Shown in pieces: positions 1 through 14,983 of a DNA stretch of 14,983 bases (position 1 is the stretch's first letter; each line of letters opens with the position of its first letter). The position numbers and the translations under genes were made by a program. The stretch is from IMG/VR virus record IMGVR_UViG_2529292981_000041; one strand, written 5' to 3'. The notes under the pieces were generated by a model, which worked only from the letters and a program-made list of their open reading frames with translations, was not told where the DNA came from and made no database searches. The DNA comes from a virus. Taxonomy: Duplodnaviria; Heunggongvirae; Uroviricota; Caudoviricetes.

Positions 1-165
1 ATGGCAAAGCCGCTCATCACGCTCAATGGCCTAAAAATCGTCATTATGTTGGGAATGCTGGTCATTATTCTCTGCGGTATCCGTTTTGCCGCCGAGATCA
101 TCGTGCCGTTTATTCTCGCATTATTTATTGCTGTTATATATAACTTATTTCACATAACACGTTGA
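1..165 (+). pseudogene. Truncated 5' fragment (54 codons) of an inner-membrane transporter gene, TqsA/YdgG-like (AI-2E family)
   Basis: ATG at 1; translation [45 protein letters not shown] is strongly hydrophobic and matches my memory of the TqsA N-terminus. The frame then runs into AT-rich sequence and stops at 163-165 (YNLFHITR*). Identity is from memory, not verified. Confidence 0.45.
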
Positions 166-863: not shown

Positions 864-1145
864 TTACCGCCGCAACCGCTCCGGCTTCTTCCAGTGGTAC
901 GTTATTTTCTCCTTCTCCCGATACATCTCCACGCGGCGACGGTAGGCCAGCAACTCAAGAACTCTGGTTCGTATGTTGCGCATATCCACGCCATTAAGTT
1001 CTATACCATCACGGCGCATCACCTCAGCAACAACACGCGCATAGTTTTCGGCTGTCACGCTGTCCGGCAGCGTGGCCTGTTCGTCAGCCTGCTGGCTGAT
1101 TCCGGCAACGCGGCGGATTAATCCCGTTATTTCGGCTTCTGTCAT
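864..1145 (-). CDS. Hypothetical protein, last gene of the packaging operon (93 aa from ATG at 1145; a GTG at 1169 would give 101 aa)
   Basis: ORF MTEAEITGLIRRVAGISQQADEQ... lies directly downstream of terL and overlaps its stop. No recognisable motif. Confidence 0.5.
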   Translation of the reverse strand: MTEAEITGLIRRVAGISQQADEQATLPDSVTAENYARVVAEVMRRDGIELNGVDMRNIRTRVLELLAYRRRVEMYREKEKITYHWKKPERLRR

Positions 1146-1158
1146 GCTGCTGACCTCA

Positions 1159-2820
1159 TTACACCCCACTAAATTCTTCCAGTTTCTGGCGGTGGCTGTC
1201 GCTTATATCAAAAGCAAAATCCTCATGCTCTGCCTGGAATGTACCAAACGCCATCAGCGCCGCCACGCTCGGGTCTATCTTGTTCGGTGATTTTTTCTTG
1301 TTCGGCTTGATATTGGCGTTCGCGTCACTCTGCATCACGACGTTACTCATCGACCAGGACAACACCGGATCGCCACGATGCACAATCACCCTGCGGTTAA
1401 CAAAAACTTCGAACGATTTCGCCGCCGGACTGAATCTGAGGTAGGTTTGCGGGAACGGCTCCACCTCAAAACCTGCCCCCTGTAATTGCGTTCTGAGATG
1501 CGTGGCGTTCCACGTATCAAAGCCCACCAGCCTGATATTAAATTTCTCCGCGTCCTGCATGATGTCATCTCTGATCCGGTCGTAATCAATGCAGTCGCCA
1601 GGCGTTGTGCGTATCCAGCCTGCTTTAGCCCACTGACGATAGATGGCGCGGTTTTTATTGGCGGGGTTCTGTAGCTGGAACTCCGGCAGATAATGACGGG
1701 AAACCAGCATAATGGTTTTACCTACCGGAAAGGCATAGCACACGCTGGAAATATCGCTTGTGGATGATAAATCCAGCCCCGCGTAACACTCCTGGCCGTG
1801 TAAATCTTCCTCTGTGAACGTTCCGGCACACTCAGCCCATGCGCCGTTACCCATCCACGGGGTAGCCCCCTGGCACCAGATATTAAATCGCTTTGTCATC
1901 ATCTCCACCCACTGCGACGGAATACCCCGCGCTTTCTGGATGGTTGAGGCCAGTTTTTCACGATCCACGGAAACATCAATATTAGGGTTCGCCTTTATCC
2001 ACATCGCCGGATCATCAACCTCGTTTTCGTCGTCCAGTTCGTAAATCAGTACAAAAATTGAATCGTTGACCTCTTCGCCGTCCAGGATCTGGCAGCAATA
2101 ATCATAGTGCTGCTTACAGGCTGAAACGACGTTACTGCCTGATGTGGTAATAGCAAATAACAGCCCTTCGGGACGTGCGCCCATCCCCAGCTCAAGCGCG
2201 GAATAAACGCCGTTATCGGGGTGCAAGTGGTATTCGTCCACGATGGAAAGGCTGGGGTTTGTTCCCTCGATGGTTGCCGCTTTTGCTGCCAGCGGCTTTA
2301 ACAGGCTGTTGCTTTTCGGGTGTATCACCTTATGCGCCTGAATATTCACCCGCCTGCGTAACGGTCGGGATAAAAGGCACATCTGACGCGCATCATCAAA
2401 GACGATCCGCGCCTGGTCACGGCTCACCGCTGCGGTGTAGATATCCTGCTGACCGTTCTCCATAATCAGAAACCAGTTAGCCAGAATCGCGGCGGTCGTT
2501 GATTTCGCATTTTTGCGCGGCACTTCGATAAAGGCGCTCGTATATTTGCGCCGTCCGGTGGCCTTAACCTTAAAGCCGAGAATGCACGCAAAGGCGAACT
2601 GCTGCCACGGCTCCAGCTCAATGGGTCTGCCACGCATCGGCCCTTTTACGTGCGGGCACACCCTGGAAAAGGCAATAAACCGATCCACAACCTCACGATC
2701 GAACGTGTAAAGGGGGCTTTTAAGGTCCGAAAAGTACCGTTTAACGGCCTGTTTCAGCCGTTTACAGGCCGGAATTTTGCCCGTTTTTACGTCTTCTGCG
2801 TACTTATTCCAGGCGGTCAA
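1159..2820 (-). CDS. terL: Terminase large subunit (Terminase_1-like), apparent TTG start
   Basis: 553-aa ORF with the terminase ATPase P-loop context FIEVPRKNAKSTTAAILANWF and a nuclease-type C-terminal half. The furthest in-frame start is TTG at 2818-2820, preceded by GAGGA. It overlaps the terS stop by 17 nt. Confidence 0.9.
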   Translation of the reverse strand: MTAWNKYAEDVKTGKIPACKRLKQAVKRYFSDLKSPLYTFDREVVDRFIAFSRVCPHVKGPMRGRPIELEPWQQFAFACILGFKVKATGRRKYTSAFIEVPRKNAKSTTAAILANWFLIMENGQQDIYTAAVSRDQARIVFDDARQMCLLSRPLRRRVNIQAHKVIHPKSNSLLKPLAAKAATIEGTNPSLSIVDEYHLHPDNGVYSALELGMGARPEGLLFAITTSGSNVVSACKQHYDYCCQILDGEEVNDSIFVLIYELDDENEVDDPAMWIKANPNIDVSVDREKLASTIQKARGIPSQWVEMMTKRFNIWCQGATPWMGNGAWAECAGTFTEEDLHGQECYAGLDLSSTSDISSVCYAFPVGKTIMLVSRHYLPEFQLQNPANKNRAIYRQWAKAGWIRTTPGDCIDYDRIRDDIMQDAEKFNIRLVGFDTWNATHLRTQLQGAGFEVEPFPQTYLRFSPAAKSFEVFVNRRVIVHRGDPVLSWSMSNVVMQSDANANIKPNKKKSPNKIDPSVAALMAFGTFQAEHEDFAFDISDSHRQKLEEFSGV

Positions 2821-3160
2821 GCTCGTCCTCTTCTTCTGTTTCCGGTGGATTTTTACGGCGGCTTATCGGGTCAAAACCGAGCAAGGAGGCCATTTTTATC
2901 ATCACTCTTTCCGCGTCGGATTTCGCGCTTAATGCGGGGTTTCTGCTCTCTCCGCCCTGACTGTTAACAATGCTGAACCCGCGCGCCGCAAGGTCTGCGA
3001 CGGCTTTCCGGTATATCGAGTAATTGACGCAATACAGTTCCAGATTGCTCCAGTCGGCGGGAGTCAGGTCACCCCGTTCCGCAAGCTGCCGCGATTTTTC
3101 CCGCCACTGCTTCACGGCGATATCATCCAGGTAGGCGGGGGCTTTCGGTGGTCTTGCCAT
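2804..3160 (-). CDS. terS: Terminase small subunit, P27 family
   Basis: 118-aa ORF starting MARPPKAP, the RPPK N-terminal signature of P27-family small terminases, with an acidic C-terminus; sits immediately upstream of terL. Confidence 0.8.
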   Translation of the reverse strand: MARPPKAPAYLDDIAVKQWREKSRQLAERGDLTPADWSNLELYCVNYSIYRKAVADLAARGFSIVNSQGGESRNPALSAKSDAERVMIKMASLLGFDPISRRKNPPETEEEDELDRLE

Positions 3161-3214
3161 ACTTATTTTTTCGCCAGATTATTTTTCAAAAAATTCCCGT
3201 GCATAAAAATTTGA

Positions 3215-3265
3215 GGAGGCGGTCGGTGCCCGGCGGGGTCGGGTTTGTCCTGAAAACGCCCCCCA
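3215..3265. other. Candidate cos region (GC-rich block between HNH and terS)
   Basis: ggaggcggtcggtgcccggcggggtcgggtttgtcc sits in the only sizeable non-coding gap of the packaging operon, about 60-100 nt upstream of the terS start. Placement is by analogy with HK97-like HNH/TerS/TerL cos systems. Confidence 0.25.
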
Positions 3266-3283
3266 CCCCGTCATACAGCCTCA

Positions 3284-3466
3284 TCAGCGATTGCGGAAAC
3301 ATTCCATAACCTCGCGGTCACGGTCGGTTAATCGCTTCGCTGTGATGCGTTCTGCGCGTCCTGACGCTTTATCTTTATGCCCTGTTTCCTGTGTCTTCCA
3401 TGCGTCACGCTGCCTTATAAGTCCACGGATAAGGCGGTTTTGTTCCCGCTCATTCATCAGCGTCAT
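3284..3466 (-). CDS. Possible small basic protein (60 aa) between HNH and terS
   Basis: ATG at 3464-3466, MTLMNEREQNRLIRGLIRQRDAWK...; Arg/Lys-rich; overlaps the HNH stop by a few codons. Could instead be non-coding sequence around cos. Confidence 0.25.
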   Translation of the reverse strand: MTLMNEREQNRLIRGLIRQRDAWKTQETGHKDKASGRAERITAKRLTDRDREVMECFRNR

Positions 3467-3890
3467 ACATCCAGTTATTGCGGTTAGCGGCCCGTTCTTC
3501 CTCTTCACGAAACCCACCTGCGGCACGCTTGCTTTTTGTTGCCGGATCAAGCCATTTCGTTTTCTGGTTATGGCACGCCTGGCACAATGGCTGATGGTTC
3601 CATTCGGGCCAGAAGAGAACATCATCACCGCCATTAATCGGGATAATGTGATCCACCACCACGGCGGGCGTATATATCCCCTTCTCAAGGCATCGCACGC
3701 ATAACGGGTTTTTACTCAGATACATGGCGCGGTATTTGTCCCACTGTCTGGAGTACCCACGCGCGCGGCGGTGTCCTCGTCTGGCATCCTCTGCACGCCA
3801 TGCCGCCCGCCTGTGCTCCTCACACTTGCCGGACTTCACGCGCCTGTTACAGCCTGGTTCTGTGCATCGTCTTAATGGTTGCCACGGCAT
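3450..3890 (-). CDS. HNH endonuclease (packaging-associated)
   Basis: 146-aa ORF with Cys pairs CTEPGCNRR and CVRC, conserved His/Asn spacing (VVVDHIIPINGG ... NHQPLCQACHNQK). Its ATG shares one base with the connector stop. Confidence 0.85.
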   Translation of the reverse strand: MPWQPLRRCTEPGCNRRVKSGKCEEHRRAAWRAEDARRGHRRARGYSRQWDKYRAMYLSKNPLCVRCLEKGIYTPAVVVDHIIPINGGDDVLFWPEWNHQPLCQACHNQKTKWLDPATKSKRAAGGFREEEERAANRNNWMYDADE

Positions 3891-4186
3891 CAGTACACCC
3901 CCACATCACGGTAAGCCGTCCAGAGTGCACCAATCGTCATGGGTACGCGTGTTTTTGCGTTATCCGCGACAATCTGGCGATTTTCATACAGGTGAGCGAT
4001 AAACATCATGCAGCCAATCTTTATGGCTGGCGTGAACGCCAGCCCGTCATCAAAGCGCCTGCCTATGTGTATCTGGCACGCCTCAAGCGATGCGGCGATG
4101 TATCCGCTGATTAACTGGTCTTCCTCGTCGCCATCGATGCGGCAATGGAGTTTCACTTCTTCCAGGGTGATAAGTTCTTCTGTCAT
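3890..4186 (-). CDS. gp6-like head-tail connector protein
   Basis: 98 aa, MTEELITLEEVKLHCRIDGDEEDQLISGYIAAS..., the typical N-terminal motif of phage gp6-like connector proteins. ATGA overlap with the upstream gene. Confidence 0.65.
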   Translation of the reverse strand: MTEELITLEEVKLHCRIDGDEEDQLISGYIAASLEACQIHIGRRFDDGLAFTPAIKIGCMMFIAHLYENRQIVADNAKTRVPMTIGALWTAYRDVGVY

Positions 4187-4521
4187 TTTTCCGCGCCCTC
4201 ACGACAAAGAATTTCAAGGCGTGTCCTGGCGGCATCCGGCAGCGGCTGCCCGATGATATTCAGTACACGCCCCGCCAGCGGCCCCGTATTGACCTTTATC
4301 CGGCTGGTGGCGTTGATGTCCTTCCTGTAGCGTATCCATATCCTTACCGTTCCAGTCGCCAGTTCTGCACCCGATGAAATGGCCTCCTTGCTGCTGATCA
4401 TGTTCACGCTTGCCCAGAGTGTGTGACCGTCCACCCACGTTTCGAGTATTTCGCCGGTTATATCCCTGGTCTGTTTCAGGGTCTGAATCGTTACCCTGTC
4501 ACGCAGTCGCCCTATGTTCAT
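4183..4521 (-). CDS. Head-closure / head-tail adaptor protein (start MNIGRL)
   Basis: ATG at 4519-4521 overlaps the portal TGA stop (ATGA). Product MNIGRLRDRVTIQTLKQTRDITGEILETWVDGHTLWASV... fits phage head-tail joining proteins. Confidence 0.65.
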   Translation of the reverse strand: MNIGRLRDRVTIQTLKQTRDITGEILETWVDGHTLWASVNMISSKEAISSGAELATGTVRIWIRYRKDINATSRIKVNTGPLAGRVLNIIGQPLPDAARTRLEILCREGAEK

Positions 4522-5729
4522 TCCGGTTTTTCTCCCTCGCTGATTTTTACTTCCTGTTTCCATGCCTGGCTGAACTCATCACCACCATCACGCGGGGACA
4601 GCCCTTCACGTTCGCGGGCTTCGTTCGGGCACATAACGCCGGATTTGATGCCGCGTTCATAGGTGGCAAAGCGTTCGCCAGGAGTGGCCCGTAACAGGTC
4701 CGCGCTGTCAAACTCCACCTGATACCGGATACCAGGTACAGGTGAGGCCACCAGCAGGGCGTTTTTTATCTGCTGCTCAAAGTTCGCCAGCCACGGGCGC
4801 ATCGTCATGGTGAGAAATGCGCGGCTTGCCTCGCTGAAATTGCTGTAGGTGCTGTTGCTGTATTCCTGCAAAAAAATCGGCGAGACGTTGAACATTCGGG
4901 CGATGTCTTCAATGGTGAAGCGACGGGAGGCCAGCCATTCAGCATCCTGATTACTCATGCCCAGCTGCTGATAGCTCATACCCCCTTCAAGGATGGGCGT
5001 TTTTCCGGCGTTTCTGGCCCCTTTGTAGCGTTCCAGTGCGGCTAATGCCTGTTTACCCTTCACGCCGTCCAGCCACTCGCCTGACGTGATAACCCCTGCC
5101 GCCATCATGCCATCACGCATCACGCTCGCGCCGTGGCGTTGTTGGGCCAGCCCAAGCCCCAGCGATTCGCGGCAGATGGTTACAGGTGAGCGCCCCATAA
5201 AACCGTCATCCGTGGAGTAACGAAGGTGGAGAACCTCCCACGGTAAATAGTTGCGGGTGTTTCCGGTGTAGGCGTCAGTGATGCAGTAGCGCCAGTTATG
5301 CTCACCTGTCTGCTCCACGTTCACCGACTGCGGCGGGTAAGGATGTAAAGCCACCGGAAAACCATCACGCCCCCACTGAATCACCGCATAAGCATTACCG
5401 TTTAACAGGCAGTGGCGGATCATCATTCGCTTAAACTGGTAGGGGGTTTGCCATGCGTTCGGGCGCTCGTTGAGGATGTGATCGACCGGATGAGAATCAA
5501 GCCACTCTCGGGCCTCCTTCCCCTTCTCATTGCGTACCAGGTACAGGTAACACGGCATGGTAGCCACCGCCTCAGAGATGACCGTGACGGCGTTCATGAC
5601 GGCGGGCAGTGATTCCGCTGTCCCCGATGATACGTACTCACCCGCCCCCGTGTTCGATGTGCCAGCCAGCGCCATAAACTCATCAAGCGTCATGCTGCGC
5701 TGCTCTTTTTTTCTTCTGAAAGGCCACAT
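4518..5729 (-). CDS. Portal protein, HK97 family
   Basis: 403-aa ORF with portal-type segments (LLNGNAYAVIQW, DIARMFNVSPIFL). Start is preceded by GGGGG and lies 1 nt after the protease stop. Confidence 0.9.
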   Translation of the reverse strand: MWPFRRKKEQRSMTLDEFMALAGTSNTGAGEYVSSGTAESLPAVMNAVTVISEAVATMPCYLYLVRNEKGKEAREWLDSHPVDHILNERPNAWQTPYQFKRMMIRHCLLNGNAYAVIQWGRDGFPVALHPYPPQSVNVEQTGEHNWRYCITDAYTGNTRNYLPWEVLHLRYSTDDGFMGRSPVTICRESLGLGLAQQRHGASVMRDGMMAAGVITSGEWLDGVKGKQALAALERYKGARNAGKTPILEGGMSYQQLGMSNQDAEWLASRRFTIEDIARMFNVSPIFLQEYSNSTYSNFSEASRAFLTMTMRPWLANFEQQIKNALLVASPVPGIRYQVEFDSADLLRATPGERFATYERGIKSGVMCPNEAREREGLSPRDGGDEFSQAWKQEVKISEGEKPE

Positions 5730-5730
5730 A

Positions 5731-6288
5731 TCACACCCCCGCTAAATCCGCCCACCAGCGGCGATTATCCGCACGAGGCATTTTTTCAGGGTGCTGCTCA
5801 TACAGGGAACGGCGGGCCAGCTCCACGCCAGAATCAGGGTAAGCCGGTACGGATGTCACGGTAATTTCGTACAGTTCCGCTATCAGTACAGTACGCACAC
5901 ATGGATCGACTGTCGTATCCCATACATCCTTACGGGAACGAAAGCCAAAGCTCATGCCCGAGATGTCACCACGTTTAACCAGTTCGATAACGTCCCGCCC
6001 TGTGCTGGTATCCGGTGGGATCAGTTCAAAACGTAACCCTGTGTCATCCTCTTCCAGTCTCAGCGTACCGGAACGGGTGCGCCCCAGTAACATGCTGTGG
6101 TCATGCTCATACAGGCCGCGAACGTCATTACCCACCGCAAGCCATTCAGTAAACGCCCCCCGCTGGAATTTTTCGTAAAACTCCCCCCATAGCAGCTCTG
6201 AAAGGTTATCCCAGCGAACAACGTAGCCTGTAAGCGTGTTGCTGCCGCTGGTGGTGATTTCCGATGACCGGATTTCCATACTCATCAT
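5731..6288 (-). CDS. Prohead maturation protease, HK97 family (S78-like)
   Basis: 185 aa; motifs GYVVRWDN, GLYEHDHSMLLGRT and ISGMSFGF are characteristic of HK97-type prohead proteases. Confidence 0.85.
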   Translation of the reverse strand: MMSMEIRSSEITTSGSNTLTGYVVRWDNLSELLWGEFYEKFQRGAFTEWLAVGNDVRGLYEHDHSMLLGRTRSGTLRLEEDDTGLRFELIPPDTSTGRDVIELVKRGDISGMSFGFRSRKDVWDTTVDPCVRTVLIAELYEITVTSVPAYPDSGVELARRSLYEQHPEKMPRADNRRWWADLAGV

Positions 6289-6311
6289 AATTTTTTCACC
6301 TGTAAAACAGA

Positions 6312-6333
6312 GAAGGGGCTTTTTAGCCCCTTC
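6312..6333 (-). terminator. Perfect 9-bp GC-rich hairpin 10 nt after the capsid gene stop (possible partial terminator)
   Basis: gaaggggct-tttt-agccccttc. On the minus strand it is followed by tctgtttta, then the protease start. Confidence 0.45.
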
Positions 6334-6342
6334 GGTGTGCTG

Positions 6343-7500
6343 TTAATCGTCGTCCTGCGGCAGTTCCAGAATCTTTATAGCGTTCGAATCCACCACGCCA
6401 CCGCCTAAATATTTCTGCGTGAAAATTTTGATAAAGCCCGGCTCTGTCAGGTTGTCCGGTCTGGTGCGCACGCCCGTTTCATGATCAACGATGTAATAAC
6501 CGCGTTTGAAGTCACCCAGGGCGATAACGTTATCCGGCATAAATTCCAGATACTCCACCGGAAGCCCCAGCAACGTATCAGGATCACCCGCCTGTAAACG
6601 GTCGCGCCAGATGTAATCGCCGTTCGCGTTCTTCACCTTCTGAAGTTTTGCCGCCGTCGTGGAGTTAACCACCCAGACCGCGTTTTTGCGGTATTTTTTA
6701 CGTAATGCAAATTTCAGGTCGATCAGCGGGTCCGCAGATGTCCACGCCAGAGATTCGGAAGGTTTAATTACCTGCAACGTACCAAAATCACGCTCTTTGT
6801 CGTTCTTCTCTGCACGGGGTACGGATAAAAAACCTTTTGCTTTTTTGTCACCGTCGCCCACAACCAGATCGCTTTCTTCGGTTTCCGTGAAGGTGTCGCC
6901 AATCTCACCCGTCAGCCATGAAAGGATGTCCACATCGGAAAAATCCACGATTTCCTGTGTGGTGCGCGGGTACGCATAGACCGGATACAGCTTAATGCTC
7001 ACCTCGTTAATCTGCGGGGTGCTGGTCTGTTCGCGTGCCTTACCCTCTTCACCGTGGTTAACGGTCGCACCGCCAGCGGAAACAAGCTGCTTAAACTCGT
7101 TGCTGCTGATTTTCTTCACGGTACAGATGCGGCGCATGGTGGATTCATCCGCCAGCATTCGCATGATTTCGGTGTTCAGCTCGGGGATAACGGTATAACC
7201 ACCATCAGCGGGAACGCCTGTACTTAATGCGCGGGTTTCACCTGTCAGGATGTAGTTGCGTAGTTCTGCGGGGTCAGTGGTCTGACTGCTTTTACCTGGC
7301 TTGCTGCGCTCTTCGTCTGCAATGGCTTCAAGGCGGGAAATGTCTTTATCGAGGGATTCAGCTTTAGCGCGTAATTCGTCAAATTTTGCGCCCTCAGCAT
7401 CGTTAAGACTGCGGTTTTCTTTTTCCGCGTTCTCCAGCATGTCGCGCATCTGATTTTTAATGGCGGTTTTCTGCTGGCGTAATTCGATTATTCTCGGCAT
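6343..7500 (-). CDS. Major capsid protein, HK97 fold, with N-terminal delta (scaffold-like) domain
   Basis: 385 aa; charged, coiled-coil-like first ~110 residues (LRQQKTAIKNQMRDMLENAEKENRSLNDAEGAKFDELRAKAESLDKDISRLEAIADEE) followed by an HK97 MCP-like body. Confidence 0.9.
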   Translation of the reverse strand: MPRIIELRQQKTAIKNQMRDMLENAEKENRSLNDAEGAKFDELRAKAESLDKDISRLEAIADEERSKPGKSSQTTDPAELRNYILTGETRALSTGVPADGGYTVIPELNTEIMRMLADESTMRRICTVKKISSNEFKQLVSAGGATVNHGEEGKAREQTSTPQINEVSIKLYPVYAYPRTTQEIVDFSDVDILSWLTGEIGDTFTETEESDLVVGDGDKKAKGFLSVPRAEKNDKERDFGTLQVIKPSESLAWTSADPLIDLKFALRKKYRKNAVWVVNSTTAAKLQKVKNANGDYIWRDRLQAGDPDTLLGLPVEYLEFMPDNVIALGDFKRGYYIVDHETGVRTRPDNLTEPGFIKIFTQKYLGGGVVDSNAIKILELPQDDD

Positions 7501-7537
7501 AAAAAAAGTCCTGGGGTTAAGTAAGGAACTCCAGGAC
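7501..7537 (-). terminator. Intrinsic-terminator-like hairpin plus 7-U tract ending at the capsid ATG; the only SD-like AGGA lies in the 3' arm
   Basis: Minus strand: gtcctggagtt-ccttactt-aaccccaggac then ttttttt then ATG. Stem is 7 bp, one mismatch, 3 bp. Confidence 0.45.
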
Positions 7538-7590
7538 GCGGCAAAAACTCAACCGTTTTTCATAAGGAAATCAGCAATCGCACCGTTCGT

Positions 7591-7638
7591 TTTCCCGCCT
7601 GGTAATGAATATTGGCGAGAACATTAACAGGCGGGAAA
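7591..7638. repeat. Long inverted repeat (about 16-bp stem, 14-nt loop) in the capsid-operon leader
   Basis: tttcccgcctg g taatg ... cattaa caggcgggaaa: 11 perfect pairs, one mismatch, 5 more pairs. Confidence 0.5.
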
Positions 7639-7710
7639 GTGGCCCCAGCGTCCTGGCACCACGGGCGAGAATAATCATGATTCAGTTCGGGTAAAATATG
7701 CCGATCCGCT

Positions 7711-7740
7711 CAGTGAACAACGTGGAACAACCACGAACAA
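7711..7740 (-). promoter_or_regulatory. Three tandem 10-bp repeats (ttgttcgtgg ttgttccacg ttgttcactg) over a weak sigma70-like promoter for the capsid operon
   Basis: Minus strand: TTGTTC, 16 nt, TATTTT just downstream of the repeats. The weak -35 with helical-turn-phased repeats suggests activator dependence. Confidence 0.4.
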
Positions 7741-7759
7741 ATAATTTACAAAACATGAC

Positions 7760-7781
7760 AAAAAGCCGGATTGCTCCGGCT
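7760..7781 (-). terminator. Rho-independent terminator after the PerC-like gene
   Basis: Minus strand: agccgga-gcaa-tccggct followed by ttttt, 7 nt after the stop at 7788-7790. Confidence 0.5.
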
Positions 7782-8072: not shown

Positions 8073-8483
8073 TCAGAACGGAATATCATCACCGTAAGGG
8101 TCATCGCCTTCCGCTGGTGGCTGATTACCCTGTGTGCCTGTGGTCTTGCGTCTGTTCCCGCCAGGACGTGCCGCACGGGCACTGATTACGCTGTCTGCAA
8201 TAACCTGATACCCCCGCCGCGTTTCCCCGTTCTGTCCGGTTCACTGGCTTACCTGCATCGTGCCGGATACGCTGGCAACATCGCCTTTTTGATGTTTAGC
8301 CAGGAAATCGGCCTGTTTGCCAAATGCGATAACCGATAACCATAACGTCGCCTGTCCGTCATGTGCCTGGCTGCATGGCAGCGATACCGCCATACGCGCC
8401 AGCGTCATCGGTGTTCCCTTGCTGGTCTGTTTTACCTGCGGGTCGTCCACCAGCCGCCCGTAAGCCGCTATCTGTGCTGTCAT
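8073..8483 (-). pseudogene. ssb: SSB-like gene interrupted by an in-frame TGA (8241-8243) at the position of the conserved Trp
   Basis: N-terminal ORF 8241-8483 (MTAQIAAYGRLVDDPQVKQ...TLWLSVIAFGK...) has OB-fold SSB character. The same frame continues for 55 codons after the TGA and ends with the SSB tail signature ...PPAEGDDPYGDDIPF*. The TGA aligns with E. coli SSB Trp88 (RTRKWTDQ against VSQ*TGQ). Confidence 0.6.
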
Positions 8484-8764: not shown

Positions 8765-9082
8765 GTGCGGGTTATGCGGGTTATTGGGTTATCTTAGCGT
8801 GCTAACCATTTTTTATCCTTTTATATCAGCATGTTGCAAAACGCCCTGTTTATTATTTGCTCACCACATAACCCGCAAAACGCTCAAAATAACCCGCAAA
8901 CGGGGTTTTTTCTGCGGGTTACGCATGACTGTCCGGTGTTACTTCAGTTATTCGCCTGCGGGTTATAATCGTGCTTTTGCGGGTTATAAATGCCCTTTTG
9001 CGGGTTACGTGCGGGTTATTGATTTCCTTTATATTCATGCACTTAATACACTTATACACAGGATAACCCGCATAACCCGCAA
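8765..9082. repeat. Iteron-type replication origin: at least 11 copies of the 9-mer GCGGGTTAT / ATAACCCGC, AT-rich tracts and a DnaA-box match
   Basis: Copies at 8767, 8776, (8785 degenerate), 8868, 8889, 8914, 8958, 8979, 9000, 9011, 9063 and 9072, in both orientations; three are spaced exactly 21 bp. (TA)6 at 8746-8757; TTATACACA at 9052-9060. Sits immediately downstream of the replication gene. Confidence 0.7.
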
Positions 9083-13210: not shown

Positions 13211-13399
13211 TTAATGAACTGCCTTGCAGCTATCCTTCCAGGCCAGAACCTCGGATAAAGACCAGCCAACGGAACGACCGCCAAGTTTACGACGTGATGG
13301 GAATTGTCCGGCCTTTTCCAGGCGGTAGCGACACGTACGGCTAAGGCCGGTTAGTTTTTCGCATTCTTTTTCACGTATAAACCGATCAGTGCTTAACAC
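13211..13399 (-). CDS. alpA: AlpA-family regulator / excisionase-like protein (GTG start)
   Basis: 62 aa; CEKLTGLSRTCRYRLEKAGQFPSRRKLGGRSVGWSLSEVLAW matches the AlpA/Xis helix-turn-helix pattern (TGLSRSTIYR...FP..I.LG.RSV.W...EV..W). GTG at 13397-13399 preceded by a strong AGGGGGG SD. Confidence 0.8.
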   Translation of the reverse strand: MLSTDRFIREKECEKLTGLSRTCRYRLEKAGQFPSRRKLGGRSVGWSLSEVLAWKDSCKAVH

Positions 13400-13683
13400 T
13401 ATTGCCCCCCCTTTCGTTTCTTAAAGAGTCATCAGGTGTCTTATTGTGTCGTATTGTTCCCGCTAGAGTGATGAATGGCAAATATTGAGGATGTATGATT
13501 TACAGAAAATGAAACAGTAAGAATAAAATCTTTTAAATTCATGTTAATACAAAGGCATAAAATATTGTTTCATGCCTTTTTTCTCGCTCTTTAAAGAGTG
13601 ATTCGCTAGTGTATAAAAAACCAGTGACACATTAAAAATCAGCCACTTATAAATCTGTATGCTTTTTCGCCTCTTGTTCGTGG

Positions 13684-13723
13684 TTGTTCCACATTGTTGC
13701 TCATTGTTGCACGTTGTATCTGT
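13684..13723 (+). promoter_or_regulatory. Four tandem 10-bp TTGT-type repeats (ttgttccaca ttgttgctca ttgttgcacg ttgtatctgt) next to a 16-bp perfect palindrome
   Basis: Same repeat family as 247-276 and 7711-7740. Perfect palindrome cagtatgcgcatactg at 13733-13748; a plus-strand TTGCAC, 16 nt, TATACA promoter-like arrangement overlaps. Confidence 0.35.
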
Positions 13724-13765: not shown

Positions 13766-14983
13766 TTATTTTCTTCTGGCTACTGGTAGCGTGGTTACGT
13801 TTTCATGTGTTCCCGCCAGTATCCCTAACCGCTCCGTCCACATATCCAGCGCATTGCGTTTAGCATCCAGATAACGGGAATGATTATAAACTCGCTGCAT
13901 TCCTGGCATCTGGTGGCCTGTAAGCTGCTCCACGACATGCGGATCAACGCCTAAATCGTTCAGCATGGTTGTAAAGGTGCGCCGGATGTCATGCAGTGAC
14001 CAGTGAGGATGATTAAGCCTCCTGTGCGCTAATCTTCCATACTGCGATACGCTGGCCTCCTGTTTCACTTCCCCCAGCAATAAGCCCGTGTGCCTGTTCT
14101 GCTCCACCAGCTGCGTGACGAACGGCAGGATCGCTTCCGGTATGGGCCGGAATATTGCGACCTTCGTTTTGCTGTGCTCCTTCGGAACGGTCCATAGCAT
14201 TTCCGTAAAATCCCACTCCCCGATCTCCGATAACCTCAGTTCTACCGTTCTGGCTCCGAAGACAATCAGGAGGCGGATTAACGCGACGTAGTAAGGGGAG
14301 AATATTTTTTTGTCCAGTGCCTGCAATAATTCGCCAAGTTCTTTGTTACTTAAGACACGTTCGCTTATATCCGGTTTTTTCCCAACGTCCGCCACGTTCA
14401 GATCGTCCAGAACGTTGCTGATTGCATAGCGCCGCCTACGGCAGAACTTAAGCGCCTGTTTGCACGCCTGTAGCACGAATCCGGCAGTAACAGGCGTTCG
14501 CTTTGCCACCTGGTCAAAACAGGCCAGCCAGTGCCGTAGCTCGCATTTATCCAGCGGCATAGCACCAATCTGCTGTATTACGTGATTATTAAGTCGCCTT
14601 TTCAGGGCGATATAATCCACGCGGTTTTCCTTTACGTAATACTCAAGCCAGTAGGTGAGCGCATCGCCAACCGTTACCGGCTTTAACGCTTCCTGTACGG
14701 TGTAATTAAGCTCATGACGTGGATTTTTCCCCTCTGCCAGCCATGCGCGACACTGGGCGGCTTTTTCCCTGGCTGATTTCAGGCTCAGATCAGGATAACT
14801 TCCCAGCTTAATGCGTTCGGGTCGTGTCTCCCTTCCCGTTCCGGCCCTGTATGTGAAATACCAGGTCAATTTCCCTGATGTTAAATATTTCACGCTCAGG
14901 TTTCCGCCATCACTATAAAACGTGTTTTTCTCCGCTGGCTTACCATGAAGTTTCCTTAGCAAGGTATCGCTCAGTTTGTTCAT
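13766..14983 (-). CDS. int: Tyrosine integrase, P4-like, with N-terminal arm-binding domain
   Basis: 405-aa ORF, ATG at 14981-14983. Catalytic signature present: Arg in FGARTVELRL, HxxR in HDIRRTF, and Tyr region RVYNHSRY. The N-terminal ~90 aa are arm-binding-like. Confidence 0.95.
   Translation of the reverse strand: MNKLSDTLLRKLHGKPAEKNTFYSDGGNLSVKYLTSGKLTWYFTYRAGTGRETRPERIKLGSYPDLSLKSAREKAAQCRAWLAEGKNPRHELNYTVQEALKPVTVGDALTYWLEYYVKENRVDYIALKRRLNNHVIQQIGAMPLDKCELRHWLACFDQVAKRTPVTAGFVLQACKQALKFCRRRRYAISNVLDDLNVADVGKKPDISERVLSNKELGELLQALDKKIFSPYYVALIRLLIVFGARTVELRLSEIGEWDFTEMLWTVPKEHSKTKVAIFRPIPEAILPFVTQLVEQNRHTGLLLGEVKQEASVSQYGRLAHRRLNHPHWSLHDIRRTFTTMLNDLGVDPHVVEQLTGHQMPGMQRVYNHSRYLDAKRNALDMWTERLGILAGTHENVTTLPVARRK

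Follow-up and report, generated by a model that had tools for sequence, protein, structure and literature searches.

A capsid-first packaging module in a probable sibling of the capsid-forming island EcCIEDL933, integrated in tqsA of Escherichia coli

The window analysed here (the whole stretch of 14,983 nt) carries on its minus strand, from position 7500 down to 864, a run of ten ORFs that is very probably (about 93%) the packaging module of a capsid-forming PICI (cf-PICI), the island itself being a close sibling of EcCIEDL933, the prototype of these islands from E. coli O157:H7 EDL933 (Alqurainy et al., 10.1101/2022.09.08.507074). The arrangement of the module, with the capsid gene first and the terminase genes last, is invariant throughout the gammaproteobacterial cf-PICI clade and has already been published.

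The module begins with the gene for the major capsid protein (MCP) of the HK97 fold family (6343–7500; PF05065, 1.6e-61), followed by genes for a prohead serine protease (5731–6288; Peptidase_S78, 4.4e-46), a portal protein of family PF04860 (4518–5729; 9.2e-91), the head closure protein Hc1 (4183–4521; Phage_HCP), a gp6-like connector representing the head–tail adaptor Ad1 (3890–4186; Phage_connect_1), an HNH endonuclease acting as packaging accessory (3450–3890; Pfam and PHROG matches), the small terminase TerS of the P27/Terminase_4 family (2804–3160) and the large terminase TerL (1159–2820; Pfam and PHROG matches), all on the minus strand. These eight capsid and packaging genes were all detected with strong Pfam and PHROG scores. 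Together with a last gene of no assigned function, they are the nine genes named in a preliminary description made from the sequence alone, and gene calls place them at the positions and in the order given there, all on the minus strand. A tenth was overlooked there, a conserved ORF of 60 aa between the HNH and TerS genes (3284–3466, minus strand; phrog_3173, 7.5e-37) that is also annotated by PGAP and is present in most relatives. The PHROG alignment of this ORF begins at residue 4, where an ATG lies at 3457.

The last gene (864–1145, minus strand, 93 aa) has a strong match to phrog_1561 and none in a Pfam search. The relatives retrieved by a protein search are all 'hypothetical' proteins of E. 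coli (at least 87% identity), and its AlphaFold model is a weak one of three helices (mean pLDDT 63.8). It is carried by a subset of relatives only and is missing from most, and its protein is 86% identical to that of the prototype, so that its membership in the module is uncertain.

The surrounding DNA has the anatomy of an island. Comparison with the intact tqsA gene of EDL933, which serves as the empty site, shows an element of 15,042 bp inserted in tqsA, as found in some E. coli O157:H7 strains, and bounded by 9 bp direct att repeats; one att core (TGCTGTTAT) lies at 129–137 and the second copy just beyond the edge of the window. The size and the flanking att repeats fit the range of cf-PICI islands (about 10–18 kb). 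A PICI backbone is present, consisting of a tyrosine integrase, AlpA (13211–13399; PF05930, 5.4e-17) and a DUF927 primase, with eleven TGCGGGTTAT iterons clustered beside the primase gene. Tail, holin and lysis genes were found neither in the PGAP annotation nor in Pfam and PHROG scans of the remaining ORFs; a tail module and holin/lysis genes are forbidden components in the SatelliteFinder definition (PMC10085698).

The closest system is EcCIEDL933 itself, located at 1.680–1.695 Mb in EDL933 between roxA and phoQ. Its gene content and order match those of the window from int through the gene after terL, and its DNA is 96.7% identical across nearly the full length. The eight named packaging proteins are 93.8–100% identical (MCP 99.5%, portal 99.5%, HNH 99.3%, TerS 100%, TerL 98.4%), as is the small ORF (100%), while the PerC-family gene (88%) and the integrase (92%) are, like the last gene, more divergent. 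The two copies differ in integration site, the tqsA gene of EDL933 being intact, and the small ORFs annotated between the PerC and MCP genes in EDL933 are missing from the window copy. Unlike that of EcCIEDL933, the SSB gene of this copy is a pseudogene with an internal stop, so this copy may not be fully functional. Published work describes EcCIEDL933 as induced by a helper phage, forming small capsids from island proteins and using only the tails of the helper, with every module gene required for transfer by mutagenesis (10.1101/2022.09.08.507074); cohesive ends, a conserved organisation and a cryo-EM capsid are reported for cf-PICIs in 10.1101/2025.02.11.637232. Given the near identity of the two islands, the window element would be expected to share helper induction, small capsids of its own and the use of helper tails.

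In content the module is HK97-like, with MCP, S78 protease, portal, TerL, an HNH-dependent cos system and a Terminase_4 TerS; the families in common with HK97-type phages are Terminase_4 TerS, TerL, the PF04860 portal, S78, the PF05065 MCP, Ad1 and Hc1. In order it departs from the canonical arrangement, as the preliminary description had said. The annotations of HK97, YeP1 and VW-6S all read TerS-TerL-portal-protease-MCP-Ad1-Hc1, followed by tail genes and with HNH at the right end, whereas the window reads MCP-protease-portal-Hc1-Ad1-HNH-cos-TerS-TerL and has no tail genes. The same description called this order essentially the reverse of that of HK97, which is correct for the blocks portal-protease-MCP and Ad1-Hc1, both internally reversed, but HNH-cos-TerS-TerL keeps its canonical order, and HNH adjoins cos in both. 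We also considered a circularly permuted phage map and rejected it, since permutation cannot reverse these blocks internally while leaving them on the same strand.

The order might have been inherited wholesale from an unsampled lineage of tailed phages with capsid-protease-portal ahead of HNH-TerS-TerL. Alqurainy et al. ascribe the differing layouts of three cf-PICI groups to independent captures from different phages (10.1101/2022.09.08.507074). In that paper two further groups, from Firmicutes, carry the same minimal capsid and packaging set on a PICI backbone but form separate clades, one whose operon opens with portal-protease-capsid and one whose operon opens with HNH-TerS-TerL. A capsid gene ahead of the portal gene is also known in real prophages, such as the lambdoid prophage at potC in EDL933, which has the order HNH-TerS-TerL-[protease-MCP]-x-portal-Ad-Hc. 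In this prophage, however, the terminases come first, the protease and MCP are fused, a full set of tail and lysis genes is present, and TerL and portal are only 23–25% identical to those of the window. A search of 50,697 phage records gave only five matches in which MCP or TerL is at least 58% identical. Four of these are small (3.8–16.5 kb) and the fifth is a 106 kb Klebsiella record; the two annotations compared, both of small records, show the cf-PICI layout. The next best phage matches reach at most 37% (MCP) and 35% (TerL), protein identities to HK97-type phages being only 27–37%, against 58–100% for MCP and TerL of cf-PICI-type records. Judged by this identity gap, the capsid and TerL appear to belong to a satellite clade apart from their phage homologues, and wholesale inheritance from a phage is considered rather unlikely.

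If the order were peculiar to this element, as the preliminary description implied in calling it unusual, then related loci should depart from it. The synteny comparison, set beforehand as the refuting test, shows that none of those examined does, and the order is therefore typical of this family. It was identical in two sets of IMG/VR loci (80 of 80 in each, 160/160 in all), of which 131 extend to terL and 29 stop earlier at contig ends, and in all of eight intact genome or "phage" records. The elements sharing it include those of Shigella, Citrobacter, Erwinia, Gilliamella, vB_KppS-Ant, Pasteurella Pmp8 and PV15-279, and it persists down to about 58% MCP identity across Escherichia, Klebsiella-type and Pasteurellaceae-type elements. 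Alqurainy et al. give 'capsid-protease-portal-head connectors ... hnh-terS-terL' as the conserved order of proteobacterial cf-PICIs (10.1101/2022.09.08.507074), and a conserved organisation is likewise described in 10.1101/2025.02.11.637232. More distant loci from the genome scan were examined as intermediates and rejected: those of Bacillota MAGs and Rhodovulum are canonical phage modules, and those of Bartonella and Nitrosospira have different architectures.

It is also very unlikely that the module is a decayed or scrambled remnant of an HK97-like prophage, its order produced by deletions and rearrangements. Remnants do exist among the relatives, for example a Rosenbergiella locus that joins portal residues 1–251 to the C-terminus of TerL, and a Shigella locus without part of cos and the start of terS, and the stop in the SSB gene could be read in the same way. 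Against this, the ten module ORFs are intact and share 86–100% identity with their counterparts in EcCIEDL933, whose function has been shown by experiment, the order is identical in all the loci and intact records compared, the att repeats at both ends are clean, and fragments of tail or lysis genes are absent. That the order arose by recent rearrangement in this element alone or only in E. coli, which would account for an order unlike that of HK97 and all the nearest true phages, is already refuted by its recurrence across genera over the same range of MCP identity and by its publication as a conserved order (Alqurainy et al., 10.1101/2022.09.08.507074), and is hardly tenable.

Most gene junctions overlap or nearly abut, in line with the tight coupling proposed earlier. 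ATGA overlaps are found at portal/Hc1 and Hc1/Ad1, a TGATG overlap at Ad1/HNH, TGAtATG at protease/portal, and a 17 nt overlap at TerS/TerL. Two junctions do not follow this pattern: MCP and protease are separated by 54 nt containing a hairpin, and the small ORF and TerS by 123 nt containing the cos candidate. TerL and the last gene are 13 nt apart, and the TAATG at this junction does not mark the start, the true ATG being at 1145. The TTG start suggested for terL is upheld by comparison with relatives. Located at 2820, this TTG is the first codon past the in-frame stop that could serve as a start. It has GAGGA 5 nt upstream and is also the start chosen by PGAP, and TerL would then be expected to begin with (M)TAWNKYAEDV. 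Across 71 relatives the start codon is TTG in 54, ATG in 10, GTG in 5 and an ATG two codons upstream in 2, and in none is the homologous codon a non-start Leu codon.

The cos site is predicted to lie in the non-coding stretch of 123 nt that separates the small ORF from terS (3161–3283, minus strand), where the motifs GGGGTGGGGG and ACCGCCCGCCCCCTCAAATTTTTACGCACGG-AATTTTTT are kept in five genera. In the linear record vB_KppS-Ant the ends lie directly after GGTTTTCAGGAC, corresponding to window position 3247/3246. With cos in the spacer, terS-terL would come first in the packaged DNA and HNH last, the arrangement known from HK97-type phages. As had been proposed, the terminase genes are found together with the cos candidate and with the island end marked by the att core.

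Upstream of the MCP gene, the leader and putative promoter region of the module (7501–7763, minus strand) extends from the MCP start to a terminator-like hairpin (7764–7781) that follows the PerC-family gene. A sigma-70 consensus scan of the operon strand upstream of MCP found no promoter, which suggests an activator-dependent one. The region contains two copies of TTGTTC(C/G)nnG phased by 10 bp (7716–7740, minus strand). Other copies in the window are at 252–266 and, in four copies, at 13674–13718, giving 7 matches where 0.5 are expected, a number reached in none of 200 shuffles. Among 86 relatives, 22 also carry the motif upstream of MCP, 20 of them at −240/−230 or −220/−210; a k-mer search of more distant relatives for operator motifs occurring both in the MCP leader and elsewhere on the island gave a very noisy output. 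Directly after the MCP stop is a GC-rich hairpin with a U-rich tract behind it (6312–6333, minus strand; z = −4.5), resembling a terminator or attenuator. About 49 of 53 distinct spacers of relatives contain such a hairpin, with stem sequences that differ in a compensating manner. In HK97 a putative terminator is annotated behind gp5, and a hairpin directly follows the MCP gene in HK97-type phages and the window alike. Rfam at gathering thresholds gave no matches in the whole window.

The expected working of the module, from induction to tail docking, is experimental for the prototype and is extended to the window on the strength of 86–100% protein identity. A helper phage would induce the island via AlpA, and the island's own MCP, protease and portal would form small capsids. 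HNH, TerS and TerL would act on the cos of the island itself, recognising and cleaving it, and would package nothing but island DNA, and the adaptor and head-closure proteins would dock tails made by the helper. The ten ORFs may form one transcription unit starting in 7501–7763, downstream of the terminator at the end of the PerC-family gene. The product required in the highest copy number, MCP, is encoded first, and the conserved hairpin after its gene probably lowers expression of everything downstream. Overlaps between stop and start codons would couple the translation of the other genes.

From these features it is possible, though we propose it tentatively and the odds are against it, that the capsid-first layout is a selected expression device, in which an activator-dependent promoter, MCP in first place and a hairpin throttling the nine downstream genes act together. 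Such a promoter would bear the phased TTGTTC motif, which also occurs near the int-distal att site and in the int-alpA intergenic region and could be an AlpA/excisionase-type operator. As a corollary, the order would have arisen inside the satellite lineage, because it is absent from the tailed phages sampled close to the clade. If the layout is such a device, the hairpin would set the capsid:portal:terminase stoichiometry without the late antitermination used by phages.

The window would thus hold a second copy of the capsid-forming satellite that has been studied most, at a different integration site. The importance of such islands is that they make capsids of their own, take only tails from others and pass from one species to another. 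There is nothing new in the gene order as such, which has been published as a hallmark of the family and serves in detection tools. The available portions of 10.1101/2022.09.08.507074, 10.1101/2025.02.11.637232 and PMC10085698 make no mention of the post-MCP hairpin, the shared operator-like motif or the conserved blocks of the cos region, and it is these regulatory features that may be worth following up.

Every long ORF in 864–7500 lies on the minus strand, and Pfam and PHROG scans show that the capsid-first order is real. In the direction of transcription, the genes encode the major capsid protein (MCP; 6343–7500; PF05065, 1.6e-61), an S78 prohead protease (5731–6288), the portal (4518–5729), the head-closure protein Hc1 (4183–4521), the gp6-like adaptor Ad1 (3890–4186), an HNH endonuclease (3450–3890), a 60-aa ORF (3284–3466; PGAP; phrog_3173, 7.5e-37), the small terminase TerS (2804–3160; P27/Terminase_4), the large terminase TerL (1159–2820), and a 93-aa protein of unknown function (864–1145; phrog_1561, no Pfam match). 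All genes listed in the preliminary description were correct by these scans, but the 60-aa ORF, located between the HNH gene and the spacer before terS, had been left out. It is identical in EcCIEDL933, the E. coli prototype of the capsid-forming PICIs (cf-PICIs), is detectable in most relatives, and may or may not correspond to 'gene 1792' of 10.1101/2022.09.08.507074. From the last gene to the att core, some 725 bp of the island (138–863) have a lower GC content and several small hairpins; no gene is annotated here, and Pfam, PHROG and Rfam give no match.

Four O157:H7-type strain chromosomes match the stretch at 100% identity, and in NZ_CP038300.1 it lies inside tqsA. Comparison of this occupied site with EDL933, where tqsA is intact, delimits an island of 15,042 bp between 9 bp repeats, TGCTGTTAT (window 129–137; comparison locus L102, 43175–44209). 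The island carries a tyrosine integrase, an AlpA-family regulator (PF05930), a DUF927 primase, a PerC-family gene and the packaging module, with no tail or lysis genes. Such a set is what Alqurainy et al. and SatelliteFinder use to define cf-PICIs. Just downstream of the primase gene (8766–9081), TGCGGGTTAT occurs eleven times, in both orientations (12 matches across the whole window, 1.1 expected); these copies probably act as iterons in the replication origin of the island. For this copy, PGAP notes an internal stop in the single-stranded DNA-binding protein gene (8073–8483, minus strand), a gene that is intact in EcCIEDL933 and strain PV15-279.

EcCIEDL933 was found in the EDL933 chromosome from 1,680,329 to about 1,695,000, flanked by roxA and phoQ. 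It has the window's genes in the same order, and both the 60-aa ORF and the gene that follows terL are among them. The packaging proteins are 93.8–100% identical, the last gene 86%, and the DNA 96.7% over almost the whole window. The window is therefore a sibling of the prototype that occupies a different attB, and is not EcCIEDL933 itself. Strains with the window's copy show two matching places each, and may carry two cf-PICIs.

The module departs from phage gene order. In HK97 the order is TerS, TerL, portal, protease, MCP, Ad1, Hc1 and then the tail genes, HNH lying at the right end beside cos. YeP1 and VW-6S, which come closest by MCP among true phages (33–37% identity), are arranged in the same way. 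The description of the module as essentially the reverse of this holds for portal-protease-MCP and Ad1-Hc1, each internally reversed with strand unchanged, but not for HNH-cos-TerS-TerL, which runs as in phage. Since blocks are reversed on the same strand while the latter group is kept, circular permutation and a single inversion are both excluded as the source of the order.

Within the satellite family, the order does not vary. It was found in four intact elements (Shigella, Citrobacter, Erwinia and Gilliamella), in vB_KppS-Ant (a 16.5 kb 'phage' record), Pasteurella Pmp8, strain PV15-279 and EcCIEDL933, and in IMG/VR loci related either to the window MCP (80/80; 64–100% identity) or to the Pmp8 MCP (80/80). 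None of these 160 loci departs from it; 131 include terL, and the other 29 follow the same order up to the point where the contig is cut off. The sole variation is that Hc1 was undetected between portal and Ad1 in some (about 16), and that the small ORF and last gene may be present or absent. The conserved order, ending in hnh-terS-terL, is stated directly in 10.1101/2022.09.08.507074, which also notes 'different genetic organisations' for phage HK106 and PICI modules, and the order serves as a search criterion in a later paper (10.1101/2025.02.11.637232). The order had been considered unusual unless synteny showed it to be the norm among related satellites. Its invariance shows exactly this: it is the published, already known layout of a well-characterised satellite family.

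Some individual copies are altered. The Erwinia element lacks Hc1 between portal and Ad1 (L005 12992–13003), in the Shigella copy a piece of the cos spacer and the initial 7 codons of terS are gone (L002, about 14200–14280), and in the Rosenbergiella copy (L003 5923–6926) portal residues 1–251 are fused to the TerL C-terminus. Other arrangements occur further afield. The EDL933 lambdoid prophage at potC (L099 34209–42565) reads HNH-TerS-TerL-[protease-MCP fusion]-small ORF-portal-Ad-Hc, also with the capsid gene ahead of the portal; its TerL and portal are only 23–25% identical to the window's. Integrase-linked loci of Bartonella MAGs (L010 1900–17682; L012) have the same gene families in a third, scrambled arrangement: primase, portal, 130-aa ORF, protease-MCP fusion, HNH, Ad1, tail completion gp17, head completion, TerS, TerL and tape measure. 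In Nitrosospira multiformis, an integrase-linked island adjoining rpoD (L007 3904–13424) has a capsid gene of the HK97 family (33% identical), and behind it an unknown 438-aa gene product and an aspartyl protease of retroviral type; no portal or terminase turned up in this locus in tblastn searches with the window's proteins.

The junctions were read directly from the sequence. Portal/Hc1 and Hc1/Ad1 overlap at ATGA, Ad1/HNH is TGATG, protease/portal is TGAtATG, and terS and terL overlap by 17 nt. The tight coupling previously described applies to several junctions but not to two wide ones, the hairpin-containing 54 nt after MCP and the non-coding 123 nt before terS. The last gene starts after a 13 nt gap at the ATG at 1145; the TAATG there is not its start. 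The suggested TTG start of terL (2820) was upheld: it is the first start-capable codon after an upstream in-frame stop, is preceded 5 nt upstream by GAGGA, and agrees with PGAP. At the homologous position, 54 of 71 relatives have TTG, 10 have ATG and 5 have GTG; the other 2 have ATG two codons upstream. Since the codon could initiate in every case and was never a synonymous Leu codon, the comparison is good evidence for translation starting here.

The 123 nt spacer (3161–3283, minus strand) contains conserved blocks, GGGGTGGGGG and ACCGCCCGCCCCCTCAAATTTTTACGCACGG-AATTTTTT, that are kept in Escherichia, Citrobacter, Erwinia, Gilliamella and Pasteurella. The second block is absent from vB_KppS-Ant. 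The ends of the linear vB_KppS-Ant record fall inside the conserved block, which supports a cos within the spacer without mapping the cut. The spacer is the likely cos and terminase-binding region.

In EcCIEDL933, transfer depends on every gene of the module, except that loss of hypothetical gene '1792' only severely reduces it; island proteins compose small capsids, and tails alone are required from the helper (10.1101/2022.09.08.507074). A later study described cohesive ends and a cryo-EM capsid (10.1101/2025.02.11.637232). Given their near identity, these findings should apply to the window's element, and its module would work as the prototype's does. The module would be transcribed as one unit: the PerC-family gene is closed by a terminator-like hairpin (7764–7781), which leaves a leader of 264 nt ahead of the MCP start. 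Directly 3′ of the MCP stop is a strong, terminator-like GC-stem hairpin with a U tract (6312–6333, minus strand; z = −4.5). Of 53 distinct spacers from relatives, about 49 keep it, with stems that differ yet remain complementary, and in HK97 a putative terminator is annotated at the corresponding position behind gp5. The hairpin would probably attenuate or stabilise the transcript, giving MCP in excess over downstream products. A 10-bp-phased motif, TTGTTC(C/G)nnG, lies some 120 bp away from the att core (252–266, minus), in the packaging-operon leader (7716–7740, minus) and, four times over, between int and alpA (13674–13718, plus). Its 7 matches (0.5 expected) were reached in 0/200 shuffles, it occurs upstream of MCP in 22/86 relatives, and it looks like an operator for an island regulator, e.g., an AlpA/excisionase-type protein.

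Among 50,697 phage records searched with MCP and TerL, only five gave matches of at least 58% identity: vB_KppS-Ant, Pmp7, Pmp8, a 3.8 kb Salmonella fragment and a 106 kb Klebsiella record. Four are small, and the two whose annotations were read (vB_KppS-Ant and Pmp8) are organised like cf-PICIs. The remaining records reach at most 37% (MCP) or 35% (TerL), and the three phages of at most 37% identity with annotations read (YeP1, VW-6S and HK97) have the canonical order. Simple capture from a sampled phage therefore does not explain the order, which would derive either from an unsampled ancestor or have arisen within the satellite lineage.
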